Positions 7,035-34,616 of a stretch of 64,000 bases of DNA are shown one piece after another. Made by a program: the position numbers and the translations under genes. How positions within the stretch are numbered: the stretch's first letter is position 1; each line of letters starts with the position of its first letter. The DNA is from an uncultured Planctomycetia bacterium (GTDB taxonomy: Bacteria; Omnitrophota; Gorgyraeia; Gorgyraeales; Gorgyraeaceae): the NCBI GenBank assembly GCA_964566255.1, contig CAZMID010000001.1, positions 83,152-147,151 on the forward strand, given 5' to 3'. The notes under the pieces were generated by a model that was given only the letters and a program-made list of their open reading frames with translations, was not told where the DNA came from and made no database searches.

Positions 7035-10000
7035 ATGAGTTTACCGCGATTTAGCGTCAATCAATCACTTTTTGTTAATCTGATTTCAGTTATCATCATC
7101 ATAATCGGATTAATAGTTGTATTTGGCATGAATAGGGAAATCTTTCCAAATGTTGATTTTGATGTAGTAAGCGTCAGCACTATTTATCCAGGCGCAACCC
7201 CATTAGATGTTGAAAAACTCATTACTGTACCTATAGAAAAAGAGCTCAAAGAGGTGGATGGTATAAAAGAAATACGCTCCTCTTCTTCTCAGGGGGCATC
7301 TTTTATAACTATTGAACTTGATCCAGATGAAAAAGATAAGAAAAAAATAATAAATGACATAAAAAGCGCTGTAGATAGAGTAAAAGATCTTCCTAGGGAT
7401 ATAAATGAAGATCCTATAGTTATAGAAATCTCTACCAAACAATATCCTGTAATAGAAGTCTCTCTTTCGGGAGATATGACTGAGGCAAAGTTACAAGCCT
7501 ATGCAGATGCATTAGAAGATCAGCTTGAAGATGCATATGGCGTTGCAAAAATAGAAAAATCTGGCTACAGGGATAGAGAAATCCAGGTTCATGTCGACCC
7601 TAAAAAGATGCGAGATAAATATGTATCATTCGATGAAATCGAAGAAGCACTTTCTTCTAGAAATGTCAGCATACCTGCAGGTGAAATAAATACTAAAAAC
7701 ACTGAATATAGCATTCGTACAACCGGTGAATTCTCGACGGCAAAAGAGGTAGAAAATATAATCATAAGGGCAAACGACGTAGGTAACTGGTTAAGGATTA
7801 AAGACGTTGCGGAGGTAAAAGATTCTTTTAAGAAAGAAGACATAATCTATAAAACACTTGGTACTCGTTCAATAAACTTATTGGTAAAGAAAAAAGGGTC
7901 AGGAGATGCAATAAGAATTGTAGATGAAATCAAAAAAGTCTGCGATCAATTCTTAGAAAATTGCCCTGATAAACTTGAAATTTCCTATGTAAATGACTAT
8001 TCCTTCTTTGCAAGAAGAAGGCTTAATGTACTAAAAAATAATGGGTGGGCAAGTTTAATATTAATAACTATTGCAATGCTGTTATTTTTACAACGCCGCG
8101 TTGCTTTTATGACAATTCTGGGTATCCCCATAGCATTCCTTGCTACCTTCGTAATAATGAACATGATGGGGATCACTATAAATCTTATCAGTATGTTCGG
8201 GCTCATAATAGTCTTGGGTATGCTTGTAGATGATGGGATCATAGTAGCTGAAAATTCATATCGCTATTTGGAAGAAGGTCTACCTCCCAGAAAAGCTGCT
8301 ATCAAAGGTACTGAGGAAGTAATGAGGGCGGTTACAACTGCTGTTTTTACGACAATAGCTGCATTTTCACCATTACTTTTCATGACAGGTATTATAGGTA
8401 AATTCATAAGAAATATCCCTACTGTCTTAATTATTGCTCTTTTGGCCTCCCTTGGAGAAGCCCTCATAATATTACCCAGTCATTTGACTGACTTTGTAAA
8501 AATGAAATATGACTCTCAAGGAAAACCCATGGGTCTAGTAAAAGACATGCCATGGTTTAAGGCTATTGTAAGGTTTTACGGAAAAATAGTAACTGGTGCG
8601 ATTAGAAGAAAATACAAAGTTGTTGCTGGATTTACACTAATACTTTTAGTATGCGCGTTTCTTGCATTCAATGTAATAAAATTCATACTTTTTCCACCTG
8701 CAGGGATTAATTTCTTTTTCATAAGGGCTGAGGCGCCCATAGGAACACCTCTTGAGAAGACAAATGAACTTATACTTCCTGTAGAAAAAATAGTATCCAA
8801 GATTCCCAAAGAAGATATGGATACTTTTGTAACTTCTGTAGGAGAGATTTCTGAAGATCGTCATGATCCTTTTGCAGGACAAGCAAGCCACCTTGTACAA
8901 ACAACAGTATACTTGCCACCTGAGGCGGATAGAAAAAGAAATGCCGACGATATAATAGATGATATACGAGAAGATATAGAAAAAGTAAAAGGCTTTACAG
9001 ATATAAGGTTTGATAGGGCTGAATCCGGTCCACCCGTAGGAAAAGCAGTAGAGGCTAAAATAAGAGGAGAAAATTTTGAAACACTTGATGTTATTGCAAA
9101 AGAATATATGGACTACTTAAAAACAATAGACGGAACAACTGATATAGCATGGGACCACAAGCCTGGAAAAGAAGAAATACGCATAAAAGTTGACAATGAT
9201 AAAGCTACTCTTTCTGGCCTTAATGTATCTCGAATAGCAAAGACTGTAAGAAGTGTCTTTGAAGGAAGTATTGCCACCAAGATAAAACCTGTTAAAGCCG
9301 AAGAAGAAACCGATGTTACTGTAATGTTTCCTGAGGAATCATCAGGAGATATTAATATTTTTAAGAATATACTCATACGCAATAAATTCGGCAACCTCAT
9401 ACCTCTTAAAAACGTAGCTTCTATAGAAAAAGTTCCTGGCACTACAACAATTCATCATTTAGATGGAAAACGTGTCGTAACTGCTTCAGCCAATGTAGAC
9501 ACAGATAAAATAACCTCTCTAAAAGTAAATAACTTGCTAGAAAAAAAGTTTAAGGATATTTCCCGTAAACACATGGGTTACTCTGTTAAATATGGAGGTG
9601 AACACGAAGAAAGTATGGACTCACTAATAAGTCTCCTAAAGGCTTTCTTCTATGCATTCCTTATAATATATTTAATACTCGCTTCTTCTTTTAAATCCTT
9701 GATCCAACCTCTCATTATAATGCTTGCCATTCCCTTTGGGCTTATCGGTGTAGTTATTGCCTTTCTTGTGCATGGACTTCCTTTATCTTTCATGGCTATC
9801 CTTGGAATAGTTGGTTTAAATGGAATTGTCGTAAATGATTCTATTGTACTTGTGGATTTTATAAATAAATTACGTCGTGAAGGAATAGACAGGCGCAGTT
9901 CAATAATAAAAGCCGGTCAGATGAGGTTAAGACCAGTACTTTTAACTACTATTACTACAGTAGGTGGACTATCAACTGTTGCTTATGGAATAGGCGGTAA

Positions 10001-10613: not shown

Positions 10614-11075
10614 TCACAGGCCTTTTATATTGTCAAGCAGCAAACCTTTGATTTTTTTTAAAGTCTCTTTTACCCCTTCACTTAAACCCTCCTGAAACTT
10701 ACTTGATGCAGGTTTTATACCTAATATATAAATTTCAGCATTTGTAGACGAGGCTAAGTACTCTATTAAAAGTTTTGGAGACACATCGTGCGTAGAAATC
10801 TTGCCTGTCCTCAGGTCTTCACTCTTAAAAAGTCTTATTTCCCCTGATTTTCCTTCAAACTCTACAGCATCTATTATAACAATAGTGTCTGGATTAAGTC
10901 TTTTTATAACACCTGTATAATTTTCAGGTGTAGTACCTGCATCTATAACCTCATATGGAACTTTATCCTTTATAGAGCTAGCTAAAAGAGGTCCTACTCC
11001 ATCATCACCTCTATCTATATTACCCAAACAAAGTAAAACTACTTTTCCTTTTAGGATATCTTTTAAATTTAACAT
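10614..11075 (-). CDS. hycI: Hydrogenase maturation endopeptidase (HycI/HyaD family)
   Basis: 153 aa; N-terminal VVLLCLGNIDRGDDGVGPLLA motif of Ni-dependent C-terminal-processing proteases; last gene of the hydrogenase operon. Confidence 0.8.
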   Translation of the reverse strand: MLNLKDILKGKVVLLCLGNIDRGDDGVGPLLASSIKDKVPYEVIDAGTTPENYTGVIKRLNPDTIVIIDAVEFEGKSGEIRLFKSEDLRTGKISTHDVSPKLLIEYLASSTNAEIYILGIKPASSKFQEGLSEGVKETLKKIKGLLLDNIKGL

Positions 11076-12884: not shown

Positions 12885-14380
12885 TTTATAGCTCCGAAAA
12901 TAACACCTGCATATTCTTTCCCGATCAATACTGCGTCTCTAGCAACTTTAAGAAAATCATCAGAAATCGCGGGCATTAAAAGAAGTCCACCTATTAAACA
13001 AATAAGTGCCAAAGTAATCATTGAAAACTTCATAAAAAACGGGACTTCCTTTATATGCTTTAAATTCTCTTTTAGCTCTCCGAAAAAGGCGAGCCTTTGG
13101 ACCTTCATAAAATATGCCAAAGTCAAGATACTCGCTACAACTGCCCAAACAGCATACGCAAAATGCTGTGCCTGGATACATGCGACTATGATAATCAATT
13201 TACTCCAGAAGCCATTAAAAGGCGGTACACCTGCAATAGCCATAGACCCTATAAGCGAGGTATTGGCTGTTATAGACATCTTCTCCCTAAGTCCACCCAA
13301 CTTGTCTAAATCCCTTATCCCTGTAGAATACTCCACTGCACCAGAATTCAAAAATAACAAAGACTTAAACACAGAATGATTTAATAGATGTAAAAGGCCT
13401 CCCATAATGCCAAGAGGTGTGCCTAAGCCAATCCCAAGTATAATATAACCAACCTGACTTATAGAGCTATAAGCCAAAAGTCTCTTAAAATCCTTTTGTC
13501 CAAGCGCAAGGCATACCCCTATAATCATCGACAAGGCCCCTAAGGCCATCAATGCACCCAAAATCTTTGGGTTTGGACCCAAGACACTAAAAAATATCCT
13601 TATCATTGCGTAGGCACCAAGGGATTTTATAAGAAGACCTGAAAGCATTGCTGAAATCGGCGCAGGCGCAGATGGATGTGCATCTGGAAGCCATGCATGA
13701 AAAGGAACAAGTGCTGTTTTTAACCCAAAACCCATGAGGAATAAAACGCTAACAAGTAATATTATACGAGGAGTCTCTCCTTTAGCTAATTCCAATGACA
13801 TATCAGCCATGTTCAAGGTAGAAGTAAAGCTATATAAAAACACTATCCCTAATAAAATAAATGAAGAGGCCAACGTCCCCATCACAGCATATTTAAAAGA
13901 CGCCTCAAGCTCTTCATGTTCTGTACCAAATGCAACTAATGCATAACTTGAAATAGCAGCTATCTCAAGGAATACATACAGATTAAACATGTCTCCAGAT
14001 ATCACAACCCCATTCATGCCAGCAATCATCAAAAGAAATAGGCAATAAAAATTCCATTTCTCAGTATATCTCTCCATATAATTTATAGAGTAAATGCTAA
14101 TCAAAAATGCGATTGTATTTATTACAACCAGCATAAATATAGTCAATCCATCCATAACCATTGAAATGCCTATAGGAGGTATCCATCCACCAACTTTATA
14201 TACGATAATGCCTATCTGTCTAAATAGGATCACAGAGTATACTGAAAGTGCTGCCAGAGAAAATGTGGCGATACCAGATAATATATCTGAAAAAGACTTT
14301 ATCTTTTTCCCAAGGAGCGAATTTAAAAACGCAGCCCCTAATGGTATAGCAACAAATAATGGCAATAGATTATGATTCAT
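12881..14380 (-). CDS. Mrp subunit D / NuoM-NuoN-like proton-pumping antiporter subunit
   Basis: 499 aa polytopic protein; conserved HAWLPDAH-type motif (FHAWLPDAHPSAP). Confidence 0.75.
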   Translation of the reverse strand: MNHNLLPLFVAIPLGAAFLNSLLGKKIKSFSDILSGIATFSLAALSVYSVILFRQIGIIVYKVGGWIPPIGISMVMDGLTIFMLVVINTIAFLISIYSINYMERYTEKWNFYCLFLLMIAGMNGVVISGDMFNLYVFLEIAAISSYALVAFGTEHEELEASFKYAVMGTLASSFILLGIVFLYSFTSTLNMADMSLELAKGETPRIILLVSVLFLMGFGLKTALVPFHAWLPDAHPSAPAPISAMLSGLLIKSLGAYAMIRIFFSVLGPNPKILGALMALGALSMIIGVCLALGQKDFKRLLAYSSISQVGYIILGIGLGTPLGIMGGLLHLLNHSVFKSLLFLNSGAVEYSTGIRDLDKLGGLREKMSITANTSLIGSMAIAGVPPFNGFWSKLIIIVACIQAQHFAYAVWAVVASILTLAYFMKVQRLAFFGELKENLKHIKEVPFFMKFSMITLALICLIGGLLLMPAISDDFLKVARDAVLIGKEYAGVIFGAIK

Positions 14381-23998: not shown

Positions 23999-24000
23999 AA

Positions 24001-24345
24001 TTATTCGATCTCTATTGAAGCAACTGATATGCCTTTACCTTCGATCAAGTCATTTATATTGCTTTTACACTTAGGACATCCCCCAAGACCGGTTTCAACT
24101 TGAAATTCATAACTACAGTTCTTACATTTAAACTTAGCTTCTACTTTTTCAAAGTTAAGTTCTGCCTTTTCAAGAGAAGTTCCTTTTGCACGCTCTCTAA
24201 AATGAAATTCAAAATGTTCTGAACTTATTCCTTCTAATTCACCTATAAGTATATTTATCTTTTTAACCTTTGAATTAAGCTTTTCTTCTTTTAACTTAGC
24301 ATTTATAACACAAAGTATATCATCTACCATGCCTATTTCATGCAT
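24001..24345 (-). CDS. hypA: Hydrogenase nickel-incorporation protein HypA
   Basis: 114 aa; starts MHEIGM; zinc motifs CKNCSYEF and CPKCKS. Confidence 0.85.
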   Translation of the reverse strand: MHEIGMVDDILCVINAKLKEEKLNSKVKKINILIGELEGISSEHFEFHFRERAKGTSLEKAELNFEKVEAKFKCKNCSYEFQVETGLGGCPKCKSNINDLIEGKGISVASIEIE

Positions 24346-24357
24346 ATCTGTCTCCTT

Positions 24358-25356
24358 CTAACATATCCTTGGTAATTGTTCACCCCTTGCCATATCTAAA
24401 ATCCTTGATCCACCTATTTCAGTCTTTAAATAAACCTTTCTATCTTTTTTTCTTTCAATTTCACCTATAATTTGACTATTTTTACCTAAAGGGTGTTTTT
24501 TCATTCTAGATAAGACTTTTGAGGCAGCACTTTTTGAAACTATAACTACTACCTTACCTTCATTTGCCATATATAAAGGATCAAACCCTAATATCTCACA
24601 TAATGCCTTTACTGACTCTTTTATAGGTACTTTTGATTCATCTATACCTATATTATAGCCTGAAGCCATACTAATCTCATTTAATGTGGTAGCAAGGCCC
24701 CCTCTAGTAGGATCCCTCATAAACTTTATATCCTTAGATATAATAGACGATATAAGGCTATTTAAAGGGGCGCAATCACTAAGAATTCTTGATTTAAATC
24801 TAAGATCCTCCCTTGCAAGTAAAATACTTGATGCATGATCTCCTACAGTACCGCTTATAATAACCTTATCTGTCGGACTTATCCGGTCAATTGAGATCCT
24901 GGCATCCTTAATGATTTCTCCTACCCCGGAGGTATTTATAAAAATCTTATCTATGGAACCTTTTTCAACAACCTTAAAATCTCCTGCAACTATATTTACA
25001 CCTGCTTTTTTAGAAGCTAATTTTATAGAAAGAGTTATTTTTTCTAAATCTTTATAAAGAAATCCTTCTTCTACGATCATCCCGCATGATATATACTTAG
25101 GTCTTGCACCAGATACAGATAAATCATTAACTGTACCGCAAATAGAAAGCTTTCCTATGTCTCCTCCAGGAAAAAATATAGGATTAATAACAAAAGAATC
25201 CGTTGTATAGGCAAATTTTTTACTTTTAGTATCAATAAGTGCAGAATCTCCTAACTTTTTTAAAAAAGGATTGTCTAAATGCTTTAAAAATAAATCCTTT
25301 ATTAAATCATGCATCAGACTTCCGCCGCTTCCATGGGATAAGGTTATCTTTTTCAT
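24358..25356 (-). CDS. hypE: Hydrogenase maturation factor HypE
   Basis: 332 aa; AIR-synthase-related fold; ends with the conserved PRIC. Confidence 0.85.
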   Translation of the reverse strand: MKKITLSHGSGGSLMHDLIKDLFLKHLDNPFLKKLGDSALIDTKSKKFAYTTDSFVINPIFFPGGDIGKLSICGTVNDLSVSGARPKYISCGMIVEEGFLYKDLEKITLSIKLASKKAGVNIVAGDFKVVEKGSIDKIFINTSGVGEIIKDARISIDRISPTDKVIISGTVGDHASSILLAREDLRFKSRILSDCAPLNSLISSIISKDIKFMRDPTRGGLATTLNEISMASGYNIGIDESKVPIKESVKALCEILGFDPLYMANEGKVVVIVSKSAASKVLSRMKKHPLGKNSQIIGEIERKKDRKVYLKTEIGGSRILDMARGEQLPRIC

Positions 25357-26441
25357 CGCCTATACCTATAATATGCACTACATGCACCTTCACTAGAGAC
25401 CATGCATGCCCCTATAGGATTAGAAGGGGTACATTTTTTAGAAAATAACTTACAGTCAAAAGGTATCTTTATACCTTTTAAGACATCCCCGCAAATACAA
25501 CCTCTATCAGGTACTGTTTTTATAGTCGGTAAAGAAAATCCTCTTTCAGCATCAAATTTGGAATATTTCTTTTTCAAAGTGAGACCACTTTTAGGGATAT
25601 TACCTATGCCTCGCCATTCAGAATCATCTATTGAAAAAACTTCATTCATTAAATTCATGGCCTTTTTATTACCTAAAGGTTTAACTACTCTTTTATATTG
25701 ATTTTCGACCTTACTCTTTTTTAAACGAATCTGTTCTACGATCATCAAGATTCCCTGCAATACATCAAGTGGTTCAAATCCCGTTACAACACATGGAATA
25801 TTATATTTTCCGCTGACTATATTATAAGGTTTTGTACCTATAATAGTACTTACATGGGCTGGGCATAAAAATCCATCTATATTTACATTAGGATCTTTTA
25901 CCAAAACCTCCATTGCAGGTAAAATTACTTTATGTCCAGAATATAGAAAAAAATTCCTGATATTTTTCTTTTTTGCATATATCAAACTTGCGGCTATAGT
26001 AGGAGATGTGGTCTCAAACCCTACAGCAAGAAATATCACTTTTTTATCTTTGTTTTTTCTGGCAATATCTACTGCATCCAAAACTGAATATACAACTTTT
26101 ACTAAACCTCCTTTTGATTTTTCATCTATAAGACTGGAGTGAGACCCCGGTACCCTCATCATATCTCCAAAAGTCACTATAATAACTCCGGGAAGTTTAG
26201 ATAAAGCTATAGTTTTATCTATGTAGGATTTTGGAGTTACGCATACAGGACATCCTGGACCTGATAGAAGGTTTATATTTTCAGGTATTAGTTTACGGAT
26301 GCCAAATTTACAGATAGACATTGTATGTGTACCACACACCTCCATTATATTTATAGGTCCTAGACCTAAGGCCTTATCAAAAATAATCTTTGAAACTCTT
26401 TTAGCTATTTTATTATTTCTGAATTCGTCTATATACTTCAT
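25353..26441 (-). CDS. hypD: Hydrogenase maturation factor HypD
   Basis: 362 aa; GPGCPVC and FLCPAHV motifs of HypD. Confidence 0.85.
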   Translation of the reverse strand: MKYIDEFRNNKIAKRVSKIIFDKALGLGPINIMEVCGTHTMSICKFGIRKLIPENINLLSGPGCPVCVTPKSYIDKTIALSKLPGVIIVTFGDMMRVPGSHSSLIDEKSKGGLVKVVYSVLDAVDIARKNKDKKVIFLAVGFETTSPTIAASLIYAKKKNIRNFFLYSGHKVILPAMEVLVKDPNVNIDGFLCPAHVSTIIGTKPYNIVSGKYNIPCVVTGFEPLDVLQGILMIVEQIRLKKSKVENQYKRVVKPLGNKKAMNLMNEVFSIDDSEWRGIGNIPKSGLTLKKKYSKFDAERGFSLPTIKTVPDRGCICGDVLKGIKIPFDCKLFSKKCTPSNPIGACMVSSEGACSAYYRYRR

Positions 26442-26647
26442 AGGACATCCTTTAACATCTGAAGGGTCTCTTGTGCCTTTTTAGGACTTATTTTTTCTAT
26501 GGCAAAACCCGCATGGACAACTACATAATCTCCTATTTTTGGATTAGTTAAAAAATTAATGGCAATCTTGCGCTGTATATTTGCTGCAGATACTATTGCC
26601 CTATCACCTTCTATCTTTAAAATCTTCATTGGTATTCCTAAACACAT
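26438..26647 (-). CDS. hypC: Hydrogenase maturation factor HypC
   Basis: The true start is the internal MCLGIP (HypC always begins MC(L/A)(G/A)IP), preceded by a GAGGT SD; the ORF track's upstream extension is not used; 69 aa. Confidence 0.8.
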   Translation of the reverse strand: MCLGIPMKILKIEGDRAIVSAANIQRKIAINFLTNPKIGDYVVVHAGFAIEKISPKKAQETLQMLKDVL

Positions 26648-26657
26648 ATCTATTACC

Positions 26658-27761
26658 TCATCCAGCAAGGGCTGCTTGACCCAATGCAATATTACCATCG
26701 TGAAATGGAACATTTTTATGTAAATATACCTTAAAATCTTCTTTTTCTAAAAGAGGGGTTACACGATCTATCAAATATCTATTTTGAAATACCCCTCCAC
26801 TCAAAACTACCTTAGAAATCTTATATTTTTTTCTTAATAAAATGGAAAGTTCTTTTATCATATCGCAAATTGTATTATGAAATTTTAAAGATATAGTGCC
26901 TTTAGGAATTTTTCTCTTAAGGTCATTAACTACACCTTTAATAAGTTTATTATGCTTTATTACAAAAATATCTTTATTCTTCACGATATCAAAATTATAA
27001 GATTTTGTATTTTTTGCATTTGATATTACCTTTTCCAGTTCAATTGCTGCTTGAGCATCGTATTTTGCAATATTACATATGTCGAGAATAGATGATACGG
27101 CATCAAAAAGCCTTCCCACACTAGAGGTCAAAGGTGAATTTATACTTTTTTTAATAATTTGTATCAAAAATTCTGATTTTCCTCTTTCTAACTTGATGAT
27201 ATTTGGAAAGTTATCCCCGTATACACTATATAAATAACTCAACGCCATGCGATACGGCTCTTTTACTGCCATCTCTCCTCCAGGCATAGGTACATATTGT
27301 AAATGGCTAGCTCTTTTAAATCCTTTAATGCCACCTACAAAAAACTCACCTCCCCAAATATTTCCATCAAGACCGAATCCTGTTCCATCAAATGCAATAC
27401 CTATTACATCGCCTTTTATTTTATTATCTACAATTGAACTTGCTATATGAGCATGATGATGTTGAATAGATTTTAACTTAAAATTACTATTTTTTACCAA
27501 ATCATCTGCATATTTAGTAGATATGTATTCTGGGTGAAGATCGCATGCAATAATGCGTGGAGTTAACTTTAGCTTTTTCTTTAAATTCTTTATTCGCCTT
27601 TCAAAAACCCTGAAACTTTCCATATTACTTAAATCTCCATCGGGCTTTGAAAGATAAGCTATATTATTTTTAACAAAACAAAAGCTATTCTTTGATTGTG
27701 CGCCGACAGCAAAAATTTCAGCTTTTTTCCGCCGAGGAAAATTTATCGTAGTGTAATCCAT
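26658..27761 (-). CDS. hypF: Carbamoyltransferase HypF, C-terminal Kae1/YgjD-like domain only (the N-terminal acylphosphatase, Zn-finger and YrdC domains are absent)
   Basis: 367 aa; HHHAHIAS and C-terminal LSGGVFQN ... DGNIALGQA motifs of the HypF C-domain. The gene starts 6 nt after the stop of the unrelated upstream gene. Confidence 0.7.
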   Translation of the reverse strand: MDYTTINFPRRKKAEIFAVGAQSKNSFCFVKNNIAYLSKPDGDLSNMESFRVFERRIKNLKKKLKLTPRIIACDLHPEYISTKYADDLVKNSNFKLKSIQHHHAHIASSIVDNKIKGDVIGIAFDGTGFGLDGNIWGGEFFVGGIKGFKRASHLQYVPMPGGEMAVKEPYRMALSYLYSVYGDNFPNIIKLERGKSEFLIQIIKKSINSPLTSSVGRLFDAVSSILDICNIAKYDAQAAIELEKVISNAKNTKSYNFDIVKNKDIFVIKHNKLIKGVVNDLKRKIPKGTISLKFHNTICDMIKELSILLRKKYKISKVVLSGGVFQNRYLIDRVTPLLEKEDFKVYLHKNVPFHDGNIALGQAALAG

Positions 27762-27767
27762 GGTAAG

Positions 27768-28817
27768 TTATCTTAAATTATCTTTTGCTAACTGGCTGAG
27801 TCCTGGAAGTTTAGACAAGACTTTATCTGTCAAATCTTGGGAGAGCGTACCCATTCCACAACTGGGAGTAATTAAAGATTGACGTATTAATAAATCTCGG
27901 GGGATTCCTTTTTTCTCCAGTTTTTTGATTTCTGATGAAAGCTTATCAAAAAGCGACTTTTCAGTCTCCTTTAATATAGCGTTAGATGTAGGAACAATAC
28001 CCCAGGCAAAGACTCCACCTCTTTTTAAAAACTCAGTTATATCGCTAGGATACAATGAAAGTCCATCTACATAAGAATATGCATCAAAATTTATAATATC
28101 GACGTTTGATTCAGTAAAAAGCGACCAATCTGTGTTACCGCAACAGTGAATTCCACTTAACGCTCCTTCTGAATGTATCTTATCTATTATAGAATTGAGC
28201 ATCAAGATCACATCCTGCCTTTCGATATTAACAAAACTCGAACCAAAGCTCGTAAGGTATGGCTCATCTACAAATATAATGACATTTTTAGAAATATTCT
28301 TTAATTTATGTATCTGATGAGCAGCTTTTATTTCTAAAAGTTTAACAAATCCCTCTTTTAAGGTATCGTTATATATTATGGACTTTCCTTTTTCATCAAC
28401 AACGCTTAATCCAAAACTAACAGGACCTGTAACATGACCTTTTACATAATTTGGATTGAATTTTTTAGCTAGATCCAAAAATACATAAAGACCCTCTGCA
28501 AAATCCCTTGAAAGCCCAAACGATTCATAGTCTCCTGAAAGATAAGCCTCATAGATCTTACCTAACCCTTCGCTTAAATCTTTGGTAGTATCTACAAATA
28601 TCTTTCTATTTTTTTCATCTATGGTAAGTGAGGGTAGACCCTCTGCGAACTGAACATACATGTTTTCTTTAAAGCTCCTCTTTGTTAGCTGAGGCCAAAA
28701 AGGTATGTCAAATTTAGTAGAGATTAGTTCTATGGATGCCTTTAAATCAACTAAAGGCAAACTCCCTATTCCAGTTGTAAGAAACTTTTCCTTGATCTTC
28801 ATGATTTGTAAACTCAA
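27768..28817 (-). CDS. Cobalamin-independent methionine synthase (MetE) catalytic-domain-like / URO-D-superfamily protein
   Basis: 349 aa; putative zinc-ligand motifs IHCCGN and ITPSCGMG resembling the MetE C-terminal domain; its first ~70 nt overlap bioD. Confidence 0.45.
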   Translation of the reverse strand: MSLQIMKIKEKFLTTGIGSLPLVDLKASIELISTKFDIPFWPQLTKRSFKENMYVQFAEGLPSLTIDEKNRKIFVDTTKDLSEGLGKIYEAYLSGDYESFGLSRDFAEGLYVFLDLAKKFNPNYVKGHVTGPVSFGLSVVDEKGKSIIYNDTLKEGFVKLLEIKAAHQIHKLKNISKNVIIFVDEPYLTSFGSSFVNIERQDVILMLNSIIDKIHSEGALSGIHCCGNTDWSLFTESNVDIINFDAYSYVDGLSLYPSDITEFLKRGGVFAWGIVPTSNAILKETEKSLFDKLSSEIKKLEKKGIPRDLLIRQSLITPSCGMGTLSQDLTDKVLSKLPGLSQLAKDNLR

Positions 28818-29463
28818 CCTTTCTTTTAGACCTATCTTTATTATAATACATTATACCTAAAATTCCTACCCCTGAAAGCTCTCTTATTATATCAGGGTTT
28901 GTTTCTATGGAGATATCCTTTTTTATAGGCGAAGTATAATTAAAAATAATACCTTCTATACTTATGCCTTTACTCTTAAGAATCTCTACTGTCATAATGG
29001 TATGATTTATGGTTCCTAAATCTGGTCTTGCAACTATAATAACTGGAAGGTCCATCTTTAACATCATATCTGGAACATAAAGAGTCTCTTTATCTTTCTC
29101 GCATATAGGTACCATTACACCACCGATGCCTTCTACTATCATTATATTATTTGCCTTACTCAAGGTCTTAAATCTATCCCATACGATATTTAAATCTATA
29201 TCCTTCTTCTCTAATCTGCTGGCAACTAAAGGTGCAAGCGGAAGTTTTAGTGTTATAGGATTTATATAATCTATTGGGTCTTTTGAAGAGGCACTTCTTT
29301 TTAAAATTTCCGCATCTTCTGAAAACCCATTCTCAACACCTGTTGCTATAGGCTTCATTACACCTACTTTAAAAGATTTATCTAAAAATCTTTTTGCAAG
29401 ATAACTTGCAACTTCGGTTTTTCCAACGCCTGTATCAGTTCCTGTTACAAAAAAGCCCTTCAT
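28747..29463 (-). CDS. bioD: Dethiobiotin synthetase
   Basis: 238 aa; N-terminal P-loop GTDTGVGKT; later EGIGG motif. Confidence 0.85.
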   Translation of the reverse strand: MKGFFVTGTDTGVGKTEVASYLAKRFLDKSFKVGVMKPIATGVENGFSEDAEILKRSASSKDPIDYINPITLKLPLAPLVASRLEKKDIDLNIVWDRFKTLSKANNIMIVEGIGGVMVPICEKDKETLYVPDMMLKMDLPVIIVARPDLGTINHTIMTVEILKSKGISIEGIIFNYTSPIKKDISIETNPDIIRELSGVGILGIMYYNKDRSKRKVEFTNHEDQGKVSYNWNREFAFS

Positions 29464-30622
29464 TTTTTATTCTCCTAAATATTTCTATTGCATTATCTAT
29501 ATGTTCTTCAGTATGCGTTGCCATTAAAGACGTCCTTATCCTACATTTTGACTTTGCTACTGTTGGCGGCCTTATACCTGGTGCAAAAATATTATTTTTT
29601 AATAAAAATTCAGCTATCTTCATAGTATTCGAGGCCTCTCCTACCCAAACTGGAATTATTTGTGTCTTTGTATCCATAATATCAAAGCCCATTTCAATAA
29701 GTGCTTTAGAAAATTTATCGATATTAGACCAAAGCCTTTTTCTTAAAGTAGTATCTCTTTCTACTATCTCTATAGCCTTTATCGCCCCAGAAACTACTGC
29801 TGGTGGTAAACCAGTAGAATATATAAAAGAACGGGCTTTATTGCATATATAGTCTATTAAAGTCCTAGAACCGACAATATACCCTCCTAGATTCCCAAAG
29901 GCCTTACTGAACGTCCCCATTTGAATATCTACACCATCTTTTATTCCAAAATATTCACAGGTACCTTTTCCGTTCTTACCTAAAACACCTGTTGCATGGG
30001 CATCATCCACCATTAATATAGCCTCGTACTTTTTACAAATCTTTACAAGATCAGGTAAAGGTGCAATGTCACCATCCATGCTAAAAACACCATCTGTAAT
30101 AAGAAGTTTTCTTCTATAAGAAGTGTTCTTTTTAAAAATATCCTCTAATCTTTCAATATTTTTATGAGGATAAACCCTTAAATCTGCACCACTCAAGCGT
30201 ACACCATCTATGAGACTTGCATGATTTAATTTATCACAGAGTACAAGGTCTTTTTCTCCTACAATGGAGGTAATAACTCCAAGATTAGTCATATACCCTG
30301 TAGGAAAAACAATTGCAGCCTCTCTACCTTTAAATTTAGCTATTTTTTCTTCTAATTTTTCATGTAGCTCCATGTTCCCGGAAATAAGCCTAGATGCACC
30401 TGAAGATGCACCGAATTCTTTTATTGCTTGAATCTGTACCTCTTTTACTTCCGGATGATTAGCTAATCCCAAATAATTATTAGAAGAAAGTAATATTACT
30501 TCTTTACCGTCGATAACGACGGTAGGACCACTTGTAGCATCAATACGCTTCATGCTTCTAAAAAGTCCCTGCCTTTTAAATTCACTCAATTCTTTCTCTA
30601 AAACTGAATCTAAATTAAACAT
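29435..30622 (-). CDS. bioF: 8-amino-7-oxononanoate synthase
   Basis: 395 aa; class-II PLP aminotransferase fold; SNNYLGL motif; TFSKAFG PLP-lysine region. Confidence 0.85.
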   Translation of the reverse strand: MFNLDSVLEKELSEFKRQGLFRSMKRIDATSGPTVVIDGKEVILLSSNNYLGLANHPEVKEVQIQAIKEFGASSGASRLISGNMELHEKLEEKIAKFKGREAAIVFPTGYMTNLGVITSIVGEKDLVLCDKLNHASLIDGVRLSGADLRVYPHKNIERLEDIFKKNTSYRRKLLITDGVFSMDGDIAPLPDLVKICKKYEAILMVDDAHATGVLGKNGKGTCEYFGIKDGVDIQMGTFSKAFGNLGGYIVGSRTLIDYICNKARSFIYSTGLPPAVVSGAIKAIEIVERDTTLRKRLWSNIDKFSKALIEMGFDIMDTKTQIIPVWVGEASNTMKIAEFLLKNNIFAPGIRPPTVAKSKCRIRTSLMATHTEEHIDNAIEIFRRIKNEGLFCNRN

Positions 30623-31575
30623 TATTTTACTATCATTGGCATAAATTCAGTGGAACCGAATATGCCATATATCTTATGCTCCTTAAGCCATAAGGCCCTC
30701 TTCATATATCCAAGTGCTGGCCCTACAACATTGGCTGCCATAGATGTCTCATCCCCGAGTATAAATCTATGGCTTGACTTTTTACCATCAAAAGTGATAC
30801 CTGTGAGTGTCATTGTAGTAGAGACTGGTTTTTTGGCATTCCTTGTATCCATTATCCCACCCACTGAAACCTTCTTTAAAGAATCAACAACCCCTGTATT
30901 CTTAAGCAATATATCATCTGCATGTTCCATCTCGCGCAGCACAAGTTTTCCATTTCTTTTATCTAAAAACTTTTCAACTTCTTTATCTGTCATCCTTTTT
31001 GCCTTACTAACTGTATAGCCTGGCAAGTGTGCAATGTCTTCTCTTATGGTAGCCTTATATTTATCCCAATTAGAAATCCCAACACCCCACCAAATATTTA
31101 CATCCTCTACCTTTATAAATGATTGGGCTGCCAAAGTTGCTGCGGCTGATAAAAGTCCAGGTGTTGCACCGCATCCAGTTATATAAACACTTTTATTCTT
31201 CTTTAATTCATTATTCAAACTCATCATCAATCTAACAGCTCTGGTCCGTTTCAAGGTATCTGTAAAAACTCCGTTAAAACCTCCCTTTACGAAACGCCTT
31301 ATTACCGACGGTATAAAATCATTAGGAAGGTTTGGAAGCGCTACAAAAACTCCATCTAATTTATTTTTTAATTTTACGACTTCACCTATAGAATCTTTTG
31401 AGGGTTTAAGTTTTTTTAGATCTTTAGTAGTTATTCCATTTTTAGAATATAAAAATCCTCCAGAATCACAAATGCTAATTACCTTTAATTCCTTTTTCTT
31501 AGCTACAATATCTAAACATGCCTTGCCAAGTCCCCCTGCCCCCAAAACTGCTACTTTCATAACTCCCCCTTTCAT
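30622..31575 (-). CDS. NAD(P)-binding Rossmann protein (saccharopine/DAP-dehydrogenase-like); candidate bioA-replacing DAPA-forming enzyme (BioU-like hypothesis)
   Basis: 317 aa; N-terminal VAVLGAGGLGKA dinucleotide-binding motif; sits between bioB and bioF in a bio operon with no bioA. Confidence 0.4.
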   Translation of the reverse strand: MKGGVMKVAVLGAGGLGKACLDIVAKKKELKVISICDSGGFLYSKNGITTKDLKKLKPSKDSIGEVVKLKNKLDGVFVALPNLPNDFIPSVIRRFVKGGFNGVFTDTLKRTRAVRLMMSLNNELKKNKSVYITGCGATPGLLSAAATLAAQSFIKVEDVNIWWGVGISNWDKYKATIREDIAHLPGYTVSKAKRMTDKEVEKFLDKRNGKLVLREMEHADDILLKNTGVVDSLKKVSVGGIMDTRNAKKPVSTTMTLTGITFDGKKSSHRFILGDETSMAANVVGPALGYMKRALWLKEHKIYGIFGSTEFMPMIVK

Positions 31576-32552
31576 AATTCAAACCCTAAATCCTTAACCA
31601 TCTGTAAATCCTCTTTTACGGACCTTCCTTTTGTAGTAAGGTATCCTCCTATTATCATACCATTGGCACCTGCTAAAAATGCCATTGCCTGAAAATCCTT
31701 TAAACCATATTCCCTTCCTCCTGCTACCTTTATAATAGAATCAGGTAATATTAATCTAAAAACCGCTATTGTCTTTAATATTTCCATTGGAGAAAGAGAC
31801 TCTACATCTTCAAGGGGTGTACCTTTTCTAGGATTAAGTATATTTATAGGTACACACTTTATACCTAATTCTTTCAAACTAAAGATAAGTTTTAATCTTT
31901 CTTCAATATCTTCCCCTAGACCTATTATACCGCCACAGCAGGCATCCAAACCTACATCCTTTAACATGCCCACCATATCTAAGCGATTCTTATAAGAGTG
32001 GGTCTTACATATATCTTTATAAAAATCTTTGGAAGTTTCCAGATTATGATTATATCTTGTAACACCTAATTGCTTTAACTCTTTTATCATAGCTATCTCT
32101 AGAATCCCAAGTGAACAATCTATCTTTATACCAACTTCCTTATTTATTTTTACTATTGCCTTTTTAATCTTATCAAATTCTTCACTGTTAGGTCCTGGGC
32201 CACTAATTACAATGCAAAAATTAGTAGCACCTGCTCTCTTTGCCTCTCTAGCAGCAGAGACTATCTTTTCAATACTCAAAAGTGGGTAAGTCTCACAATT
32301 TGTCTTATACCTTGAAGATTGTGCGCAAAATTTACAATCCTCTGAACAAAGTCCACTTTTTGCATTTACTAAAGAACATAAATCTATCTTATTCCCGCAA
32401 AATTTTCGTCTTACAGCATCTGCTGTATGCATAAGAAGAGGGACATCATCCCTTTCTAAAGTCAAGAGGACTCTTGCATCTTTAAAGCTTAAACTCTTAC
32501 CATCCAACACGCCATCTAAGATACCTTTAATCATACGTAGTATTTTACCCAA
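31572..32552 (-). CDS. bioB: Biotin synthase (radical SAM)
   Basis: 326 aa; CSEDCKFCAQS radical-SAM CxxxCxxC motif. The annotated start is a TTG at 32552; an alternative ATG at 32534 would make the mRNA near-leaderless. Confidence 0.85.
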   Translation of the reverse strand: MGKILRMIKGILDGVLDGKSLSFKDARVLLTLERDDVPLLMHTADAVRRKFCGNKIDLCSLVNAKSGLCSEDCKFCAQSSRYKTNCETYPLLSIEKIVSAAREAKRAGATNFCIVISGPGPNSEEFDKIKKAIVKINKEVGIKIDCSLGILEIAMIKELKQLGVTRYNHNLETSKDFYKDICKTHSYKNRLDMVGMLKDVGLDACCGGIIGLGEDIEERLKLIFSLKELGIKCVPINILNPRKGTPLEDVESLSPMEILKTIAVFRLILPDSIIKVAGGREYGLKDFQAMAFLAGANGMIIGGYLTTKGRSVKEDLQMVKDLGFEL

Positions 32553-32562
32553 TATATCTTGA

Positions 32563-32594
32563 TTGTCAACCTAACCCTAAAACTAGGTTAACAA
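32563..32594. promoter_or_regulatory. BirA-operator-like inverted repeat TGTCAACC-N14-GGTTAACA overlapping the putative bioB -35 element
   Basis: Half-sites at 32564-32571 and 32586-32593 match the bacterial BirA box consensus TGTAAACC-N14/15-GGTTTACA. The reverse complement of 32565-32570 is TTGACA, and a TAAAAT (reverse complement of 32542-32547) lies 17 nt downstream. Confidence 0.55.
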
Positions 32595-32596
32595 TA

Positions 32597-33130
32597 TTAT
32601 ATCATTAGGATTTTAGTAATTAAGAGGGAGATTTTTAAAGTTTTGGATTTTTTCTTTTTGGGAATCAAACTAAATCTATTTACTTTTATTAATTGGTGGG
32701 ATTTTTCTAATTGGTAGATAAAATCCATCAATAACGACATCTCTGATTCTGCTTCTATAGTCACTTTATATTCAATATATAAACCTTTTTCTTCCATTGG
32801 AAGTGGTTTTATGTTTTTAATCAAAACAGATGTTTTGCGTCCAAGTTTTTCTATCTCACTCGATAGACTTGCTATCTCTTCTTCGTCTGAGGCAACCTTT
32901 TTTAAGCCTTGTATAATTTTTTCGTATTTATCTCGTATCGAATCCTTCTCATTCCATATAAACATAGAACGCTCTAGCTTCTTCTCATAGGTGGATATCT
33001 CTTTATTCAAATTATCTAAGATCCTCATTGCTGGAGAAATCATAACCTTATCAATAAAAAGAGAAGAGATAACTATAACTGATATATATACTACATATTT
33101 TTCACGTTGTGATAACTTTGAGAAAAACAT
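32597..33130 (-). CDS. PilO/GspM-like pilus assembly protein
   Basis: 177 aa; N-terminal TM helix then a coiled-coil; located after a PilMN fusion gene. Confidence 0.5.
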   Translation of the reverse strand: MFFSKLSQREKYVVYISVIVISSLFIDKVMISPAMRILDNLNKEISTYEKKLERSMFIWNEKDSIRDKYEKIIQGLKKVASDEEEIASLSSEIEKLGRKTSVLIKNIKPLPMEEKGLYIEYKVTIEAESEMSLLMDFIYQLEKSHQLIKVNRFSLIPKKKKSKTLKISLLITKILMI

Positions 33131-33131
33131 T

Positions 33132-34616
33132 TTAATACTCCCTCAATAATCTTTGTAAGGCTGCACTTAAGGGACAAATTATTTCAAACTCTGCTGTCTC
33201 CTCGCCCTTTACTATGTTTTTAGAGACATATTTTGTCTTAACATTCTCAAAATATTCCGATTTTTCCAATTCATTTACAAATTTAAATACTTCAGACATT
33301 ACGCTGGAAGAACCTCGTAAAGTTAGGATATGTTTTCCATCAAAACTGACAGATAATAGATACATATCTGGAGAAATCACGTTATATGCTTCATAAAGAA
33401 TATTAAGCACAGATCCTTTTGCATCTGAACGAGATTTTACTATTTCCATTTTCTCCTTCATAAGACCTAGATCATCTGCTTCGCCTTTTATCGAAGCTAT
33501 CTTATTCTTTAATTGAGTTAAATAACGTTCCCTACTGTAGAATTTTTCCAGGAAAACACTGGATGTAGCTATTAAAATCAATGCCAGAAGTATACCCAAA
33601 AGATATAAATCCTTTGCCCTCTTCTTCATAGTCCTTTCTAGTTTAATCTCATGAGGAAGAAGATTAATATGTTCTTTTCCGTATATAAAAGCTAATCCTA
33701 TGAGGCTAGAAAGGGATATATCCTTTAAGTCTCCTCCGTATAGATCAAGCGCCTCTTTAGTCACGGGAATATTCTTAAATTGAGGGGTGATTTCTACGGG
33801 CAAATTGAAACTTTCTCTTAAAAGATTATCATTAAGTTTTGCAGTAACTCTTTCTGAACCACCAATAACAATCTTAGATATATCTTTATTTACCATCTCA
33901 TTTTGATAGGCATAAATAGAACGGTTTATCTCTTCTATTAATTCCTTTTGCCATTTATCCATATCTTCTACAGATTGAGAAAACCCCAAGGAGATATTCC
34001 TATCGAATATTATTTTATTATTCAATATGGCTATAAAATTACTTTCGGTATTATCCACATCTACAAGGAGGTATGGCTCATCTTCAACTTTTTTTTCTTG
34101 ATAACTTAATCTGCACCAGTTTAGCGTACCCTCGGAACTCAAACCTATCCTTGCAGGCTTAAGCCCAGCTTTTTCAAGAACCCTGAAATATCTATTTACG
34201 ATATCGATATGAACAATAACAAGCATAACTCTGCTGTATCCGTCAGGGCTTGTATACACAATCTGATAATCGCTAACTATCTCATTTGTAGAATAAGGAG
34301 TCTGTTTTCCTATCTGTAGTTCTACCATATCCTTTATTTCTTCAGAATCTAAGGAAGGGAATTCAGGATTCCTGATAGTAGCAAATTGTGTTGGCATAGA
34401 TATAATAAGATGATCCGGATCTATCTTAAACTGCTTAGATAGACCCGTTATCATCTTAATAAGTTCATTCTCAGAAATACCATTGATTTTTTTTACTACG
34501 CTTCGAAAGATCTTTTTTTCTCTAGGAGAGGGTCTGAGCTGCACCATCTTCAGGAAATTTTCATCCATTTCTAAAACAGTTATAATTTTATCTTTTCCTG
34601 TAAATGGTAGTTTCAT
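33132..34616 (-). CDS. PilM-PilN fusion (actin-like ATPase domain + TM + PilN domain; GspL-like)
   Basis: 494 aa; actin-like N-terminal domain; TM helix LYLLGILLALILIATSSVFL preceded by an INLLPHEIK-type PilN motif. Confidence 0.65.
   Translation of the reverse strand: MKLPFTGKDKIITVLEMDENFLKMVQLRPSPREKKIFRSVVKKINGISENELIKMITGLSKQFKIDPDHLIISMPTQFATIRNPEFPSLDSEEIKDMVELQIGKQTPYSTNEIVSDYQIVYTSPDGYSRVMLVIVHIDIVNRYFRVLEKAGLKPARIGLSSEGTLNWCRLSYQEKKVEDEPYLLVDVDNTESNFIAILNNKIIFDRNISLGFSQSVEDMDKWQKELIEEINRSIYAYQNEMVNKDISKIVIGGSERVTAKLNDNLLRESFNLPVEITPQFKNIPVTKEALDLYGGDLKDISLSSLIGLAFIYGKEHINLLPHEIKLERTMKKRAKDLYLLGILLALILIATSSVFLEKFYSRERYLTQLKNKIASIKGEADDLGLMKEKMEIVKSRSDAKGSVLNILYEAYNVISPDMYLLSVSFDGKHILTLRGSSSVMSEVFKFVNELEKSEYFENVKTKYVSKNIVKGEETAEFEIICPLSAALQRLLREY

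Follow-up and report, generated by a model that had tools for sequence, protein, structure and literature searches.

What controls the biotin genes of this uncultured bacterium, and how far does that control reach? At positions 32563-32594 of the window, that is, of the whole 64 kb stretch of DNA analysed here, a 32 bp inverted repeat lies before the biotin synthase gene bioB, which is encoded on the minus strand. On the plus strand the repeat reads T-TGTCAACC-TAACCCTAAAACTA-GGTTAACA-A, or TTGTCAACC-N14-GGTTAACAA, and on the coding (minus) strand of bioB it reads TTGTTAACC-N14-GGTTGACAA; no strand is assigned to the repeat itself. The 8 bp cores occupy 32564-32571 and 32586-32593, and one extra base per side extends them to 9 bp half-sites, the promoter-proximal one at 32563-32571 (GGTTGACAA on the minus strand) and the promoter-distal one at 32586-32594 (TTGTTAACC on the minus strand). 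The published signal of the biotin repressor BirA is TTGTAAACC-[N14/15]-GGTTTACAA (PMC545781), which the half-sites and spacing in the window fit exactly, the variable base aside. The repeat has the form by which BirA operators are recognized, two inverted half-sites of 8-9 bp of the TTGT(A/T/C)AACC type with 14-16 bp between them. A preliminary description of this locus had seen in the repeat a biotin-repressor-like site, and both the coordinates and the sequence of that site hold. It is also the sole site of its kind, as no second BirA-type site is present in the 64 kb window at up to three mismatches, where shuffled sequences average 0.39 such matches. An exact match to the 14 specified bases is expected by chance about 2e-4 times per window, as estimated from base composition.

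The repeat coincides with the predicted promoter of bioB. As had been described previously, the half-site nearer to bioB holds a TTGACA -35 hexamer on the coding strand, located at 32569-32564 (minus strand, 32564..32569) within the proximal half-site. A -10 hexamer, TAAAAT, follows at 32542..32547 on the same strand, 16 bp from the -35. Together, TTGACA-16-TAAAAT matches 11 of 12 consensus positions and is the top promoter-like match within 24000-33200, and in 11 relatives the -10 is kept as TAAAAT or TACAAT at 16-17 bp from the -35. The site is therefore positioned as an operator would be, in the promoter region of a biotin gene, within the 62 bp gap before bioB, and overlapping a core element of the predicted promoter. 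An extended -10, TGATATAAT, can also be read at 32604-32596, at the end of the PilO-like gene upstream. If this promoter is used, its start site would be followed closely by the operator, and repression would be expected in this case too.

The size of the gap depends on the start codon of bioB. The 44 bp gap given in the preliminary description is correct for the longest open reading frame, from the stop codon of the PilO-like gene at 32597 to a TTG at 32552. This TTG falls within the spacer between the predicted -35 and -10, bioB homologues align from the ATG at 32534 and not from the TTG, and gene callers, applied independently to three further contigs of this organism, place the bioB start at the ATG as well. 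It is likely that bioB starts at the ATG at 32534, and the upstream gap is therefore 62 bp (32535-32596) rather than 44 bp. This ATG is 7 nt past the -10, and the operator ends 29 nt before it. No Shine-Dalgarno sequence precedes the ATG; a crude test finds one for 34 of the 53 genes in the window. Because the ATG follows the -10 by only 7 nt and has no Shine-Dalgarno sequence, the bioB mRNA is probably leaderless or nearly so, with the transcription start being a prediction. The same layout is present in L002, L199, and L004, where the bioB ATG is 6-12 nt after the -10. Other family members have bioB leaders of 40-200 nt, filled with palindromic repeats.

The genome to which the window belongs is that of a Candidatus Omnitrophota bacterium. 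The closest BioB sequences (67-73 % identity) come from metagenome-assembled genomes of Candidatus Omnitrophota, some of which are labelled 'uncultured Planctomycetia'. Had the motif not been conserved before the bio genes of related genomes, the preliminary description would have abandoned its interpretation; a site with no more than two mismatches was present before bioB in 15 of 19 Omnitrophota loci, with variant sites in three more. All eight close relatives have the site before bioB, seven as YGTTAAC(C/T)-N14-(G/A)GTTGACA and L005 with a 13 bp spacer, and so do five more distant Omnitrophota. Approximately 294 kb of Omnitrophota DNA contains 18 sites at up to two mismatches, 16 of them at the position upstream of bioB, including one (L115) in which the contig stops before bioB is reached. 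These sites serve BioU-type as well as BioA-type operons. When 11 sequences are aligned, the invariant columns are GTTAAC of the distal half-site, GTTGACAAT, and the -10, and the spacer is more variable; the half-sites are therefore conserved at the orthologous position to a greater extent than the sequence between them. Diverged sites are present before bioB in L010 (about 9935-9965), as TGTCGACC-N14-AGTCGACG, and in L011 (about 8255-8285), an indication that the half-site has drifted within the phylum. The bioB of L015 directly adjoins the gene before it, and in L014 and L016 the promoter is placed differently, with the distal half-site appearing to carry the -10.

The operator stays with bioB in varied upstream contexts: the window has a PilO-like gene, most relatives have a gene of the LacI family, L004 has an insert of 330 nt, and the distant members have other contexts. 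The LacI-family gene is directly upstream of bioB in L002 (8952-9953) and is in the same position in L003-L009, L115, L161, and L199. Its last codons (S-L-T-stop) overlap the distal half-site in most of the close relatives, and coding constraint could explain part of the conservation of this half-site in the LacI-bearing genomes. However, the distal half-site is outside the upstream coding sequence, and is nonetheless kept, in the window and in L004, where it is 330 nt past the LacI-family gene. The window and the Omnitrophota loci examined gave neither bioY nor a second site, so that the regulon is a single operon as far as can be seen.

Some of the relatives have hairpins between the promoter and bioB. 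These were considered as biotin-specific leaders and rejected, being a REP-like repeat common to most gaps between genes. This palindrome, AACTTTACA-(about 17 nt)-TGTAAAGTT, fills most intergenic gaps in L007, L009, and L161, with eight copies in 21 kb of L007 (for example at 9937-9971, 10959-10993, and 14143-14177), and is absent from the window.

Outside the phylum, the pattern GTTAACCT-N11-T-N-GGTTRACA was used to scan metagenomes and matched at least 120 contigs. Among the matches listed, there are 139 flanking open reading frames of at least 100 aa, of which 68 are biotin-related, including 50 BioY, nine BioB, three BirA (HTH_11+BPL+BPL_C), two BioA, and two BioD. Also among the matches listed, a full-length BirA whose N-terminal domain is a winged helix-turn-helix is encoded on eight contigs, in several cases directly behind the site. 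Across the listed metagenomic matches, the same motif marks other biotin genes, as is expected from the operator of a coherent regulon. Some unrelated metagenomic contigs (L178, 3047-8213; L139, 1-1913; L158) have birA in the vicinity of bioY and coaX (type III pantothenate kinase), and in L178 the operator precedes bioY-coaX.

The listed matches include 70 asymmetric sites (GTTAACC-N14-GGTTGACA; L082-L201). In 42 of these, a biotin gene follows downstream of the TTGACA half; in none is it on the opposite side. Because of this 42 to 0 orientation among the asymmetric sites listed, the sharing of a half-site with the -35 is, as read from these sequences, a general design, and the doubling of the proximal half-site as a -35 hexamer is a common arrangement rather than a chance feature of this window. 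Promoter function thus appears to set the 'variable' base in the BirA half-site.

Combined, the match to the published motif, the conservation in Omnitrophota, and the association with bioY, bioB, and birA in metagenomes make a BirA-type operator that overlaps the bioB promoter through its -35 a well-supported prediction. In E. coli and S. aureus, a BirA dimer carrying biotinoyl-5'-AMP represses transcription (PMC5640590), and the mechanism proposed for the window is taken over from these species. With ample biotin and with the acceptor proteins already biotinylated, BirA would retain biotinoyl-5'-AMP and dimerize. Each N-terminal winged helix-turn-helix would then read one of the two half-sites (TTGTTAACC and GGTTGACAA), 14 bp apart. 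Since the proximal half-site is also the -35, bound BirA would exclude RNA polymerase from TTGACA-16-TAAAAT, and the probably leaderless bioB-bioU-bioF-bioD transcript would be turned off. It is highly likely that the repeat is the operator of a bifunctional (group II) BirA that represses these four genes in this way, via the -35.

Comparable systems are well known. In E. coli, as in the window, inverted half-sites of the TGT-A-AACC type lie over core promoter elements of the biotin operon at bioO, and this site was found again between bioA and bioB in 5407 of 5426 genomes. The E. coli bioO has a 16 bp spacer and halves of TGTAAACC and GGTTTACA, as counted on the matched sequence, whereas the window has a 14 bp spacer, with T or C as the variable base; in addition, bioO serves two divergent promoters that are face to face, whereas in the window there is one promoter, of which only the -35 side is covered. 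The closest known variant is in Geobacter and Desulfuromonas, for which sites of TTGTcAACC-[N14]-GGTTgACAA were predicted upstream of bioB, bioF, or bioW (Rodionov et al., 2004; PMC545781, Table 1). The window site belongs to this variant class, with the same half-sites and the same N14 spacing. Geobacter and Desulfuromonas are of another phylum, however, their sites are 63-182 nt before the start codon as opposed to 29 nt in the window, and a bifunctional birA has been identified in their genomes, whereas the repressor of the window is inferred. In the Firmicutes (B. subtilis and S. aureus: bioO, bioY, yhfS-yhfT), a group II BirA represses genes for both biosynthesis and transport (PMC5640590; PMC11089781). 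These regulons use the same class of palindrome as the window, and likewise the listed metagenomic instances mostly precede bioY. The Firmicutes regulons include bioY, whereas the window and the Omnitrophota loci have no bioY and one operon as far as seen.

A gene for BirA itself was sought in several ways. None was found in the 64 kb window by tblastn with the E. coli, B. subtilis, and seven metagenomic BirA sequences or by a regular expression for the ligase signature; none is present in the 10 kb left flank of the window; and none is within 10 kb of bioB in 81 genomes. Protein searches returned BirA from Desulfobacterales and from a mixed set without Omnitrophota names, and none from Omnitrophota. 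Nothing relevant to BirA in Omnitrophota was found in the literature. No BirA gene was retrieved for this lineage in these searches; that BirA is the repressor at this site is inferred, and its dependence on biotinoyl-5'-AMP as corepressor would follow from the systems described above.

The eight BirA proteins encoded near the metagenomic sites were considered as Omnitrophota proteins and rejected, with a profile search leading to Desulfobacterales. The BirA of L178 is an orphan, its neighbours being a mixture of Methanosarcinales, Myxococcota, and Firmicutes. Tetranucleotide similarity of the metagenomic BirA contigs tracked G+C content only, and by tblastx these contigs and Omnitrophota DNA have nothing in common.

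The failure to retrieve a BirA for the lineage in the window, its 10 kb left flank, the 81 bioB loci, and the protein searches would also fit a lineage that has only a catalytic (group I) ligase and in which the operator, while real, is read by some other regulator, either an unnamed factor or the LacI-family neighbour. The presence of the LacI-family gene immediately before bioB in all close relatives examined, with its stop codon inside the distal half-site, is in keeping with the latter. Yet the window carries the site and has no LacI homologue in its 64 kb, and in the relatives two large genes (encoding about 500 and 860-910 aa) precede the LacI-family gene. Operators of the LacI family form one contiguous palindrome of about 16-20 bp, whereas the repeat in the window consists of two 9 bp halves that are 14 bp apart. 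The LacI-family neighbour was therefore rejected as the cognate regulator, based on the absence of a homologue from the window and on the form of the site. As for other factors, the BioR operator is TTATMKATAA and the BioQ operator is TGAAC-N3-GTTCA, and on direct reading neither motif is present in the 62 bp gap before bioB. BioR (GntR family), BioQ (TetR family), and BioL also repress biotin genes (PMC11089781; PMC12704756) and share the physiological role of BirA, but both the proteins and their operators are unrelated to the BirA system. Any regulator other than BirA would also have to use a motif that marks bioY, bioB, and birA in metagenomes and in the literature (PMC545781), and this explanation is considered improbable.

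Still less probable is that the repeat is no DNA operator and acts instead as an RNA hairpin, a terminator or stabilizer at the 3' end of the upstream pilus/secretion operon. If transcribed, the repeat is predicted to fold at -20.4 kcal/mol (z = -3.8), which was equalled by none of 200 shuffles, and it lies 3 nt after the PilO-like stop codon. There is, however, no U-run after the repeat. The terminator scan made no call there and Rfam gave no match at E values of up to 1, and thus neither an intrinsic terminator nor a structured RNA was recognized. The arms are conserved by sequence, with no covariation. In the relatives, the repeat follows an unrelated gene and always precedes bioB; likewise, the listed metagenomic sites precede biotin genes and are oriented by a rule that fits a promoter only. 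Similarly remote is the suggestion of a strong promoter only, with a TTGACA -35 beside a fortuitous palindrome and no biotin-specific control: the most conserved block does include the -35 and -10, but all 11 aligned sequences share the distal GTTAAC, which lies 14 bp before the -35 half, and the distal half is kept in distant Omnitrophota in which the promoter is placed otherwise (L014 and L016), in addition to the low chance expectation for the full motif (about 2e-4 per window).

The BirA-type operator is an ordinary regulatory element of a known type, in a phylum for which it had no earlier description. BirA boxes before bioB have been known across Bacteria and Archaea for more than 20 years (PMC545781), and no report of one in Omnitrophota was found in the literature. 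For biotin regulation there is nothing conceptually new beyond the extension of this very widely conserved signal to Candidatus Omnitrophota, an uncultured phylum for which hardly any transcriptional regulation has been described, and the usable handle that it provides there, comprising a promoter, an operator, and an effector, one of each and all predicted. Omnitrophota are thereby predicted to have a BirA that binds DNA and to sense biotin, a point of relevance to the debate on how far they depend on hosts.

How far the regulated unit extends is a separate matter. All of the genes around the operator are on the minus strand, and the gene upstream is therefore in the same direction as bioB. 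From its ATG, bioB (31572..32534) encodes a biotin synthase of 320 aa (TIGR00433, 404 bits). In place of bioA there is a BioU-like gene (30622..31575), matching NF047886 over its full length at 383 bits, which does not reach the curated cut-off of 600. This is the gene between bioB and bioF that had been noted as 'Rossmann'; its presence stands and, subject to that cut-off, it can be described more closely as BioU-like. Its start overlaps the bioB stop by 4 nt, and it is kept in close relatives. It is followed by bioF (8-amino-7-oxononanoate synthase, 29435..30622; TIGR00858, 479.5 bits) and by bioD (dethiobiotin synthase, 28747..29463; TIGR00347, 173.7 bits), with which the unit conserved alongside the operator ends. 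No bioC, bioH, bioW, bioI, or bioZ was identified among the genes of the operon, and bioY, coaX, nadC, and greA are absent from the 64 kb window.

Beyond bioD, and with gene overlaps and no intergenic gap, the minus strand encodes a 344 aa protein, the C-terminal half of HypF, hypC, hypD, hypE, and hypA (24001..28802). The start of the gene for the 344 aa protein (27768-28802) overlaps bioD by 56 nt in this genome. This protein has no Pfam family and no sequence relative in the PDB, and its NCBIfam match is weak and methionine-synthase-like. The best 120 homologues are all from Omnitrophota where named, with the PGAP label 'methionine synthase'. The HypF homologue (26658-27761) consists of the Kae1-like C-terminal half only (TIGR00143 positions 383-739; Pfam HypF_C and HypF_C_2), and no acylphosphatase, zinc-finger, or YrdC-like part of HypF was seen near the gene. 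Downstream of it are hypC, hypD, hypE, and hypA, and then group-4-like [NiFe]-hydrogenase genes.

In the preliminary description, everything from bioB to the hyp genes was predicted to be one biotin-responsive unit. The tight packing in this genome is as described: successive genes from bioB through hypE overlap or all but touch, and because of this, and of the 56 nt overlap of bioD with the next gene, read-through past bioD is likely here. In the relatives the picture differs. The operon of L008 ends after bioD, at a convergent IS200-like transposase gene, and hyp genes are not linked to bio there; L002 and L007 have gaps of 250-340 nt after bioD, with the REP-like palindrome in the gap of L007. 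The hyp genes of the window belong with the downstream [NiFe]-hydrogenase cluster, into which they lead. The order bioB-bioU-bioF-bioD is kept in L002, L005, L007, L008, and L161. From this comparison, the conserved target of the operator would be bioB-bioU-bioF-bioD, with the extension into hyp a possibility that is specific to this genome. It might be that one BirA-controlled leaderless transcript runs from bioB-bioU-bioF-bioD through the gene for the 344 aa protein and the HypF C-terminal half into hypCDEA, although this is doubtful. Were it the case, biotin status would gate the maturation of [NiFe]-hydrogenase, or the two odd proteins would help to make the biotin precursor.

The four-gene order is that of the close Omnitrophota family (L002-L008, L161, and L199), and more distant members have instead a gene of about 1.4 kb between bioF and bioD. 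In a 2026 preprint, the biotin pathway of Omnitrophota was scored as uniformly partial, based on KO counts that include bioA. Replacement of bioA by BioU could account for part of this score.

Upstream of the operator there are PilM- and PilO-like and pseudopilin genes, in a cluster resembling those for type IV pili or type II secretion. Towards the right, an open reading frame of giant size, with more than 4,500 codons, extends on the minus strand from 50206 to beyond 64000, running past the end of the window; the N-terminal part that was read is rich in Gly, Thr, and Asn, and it fits the very long proteins that have been reported for Omnitrophota.
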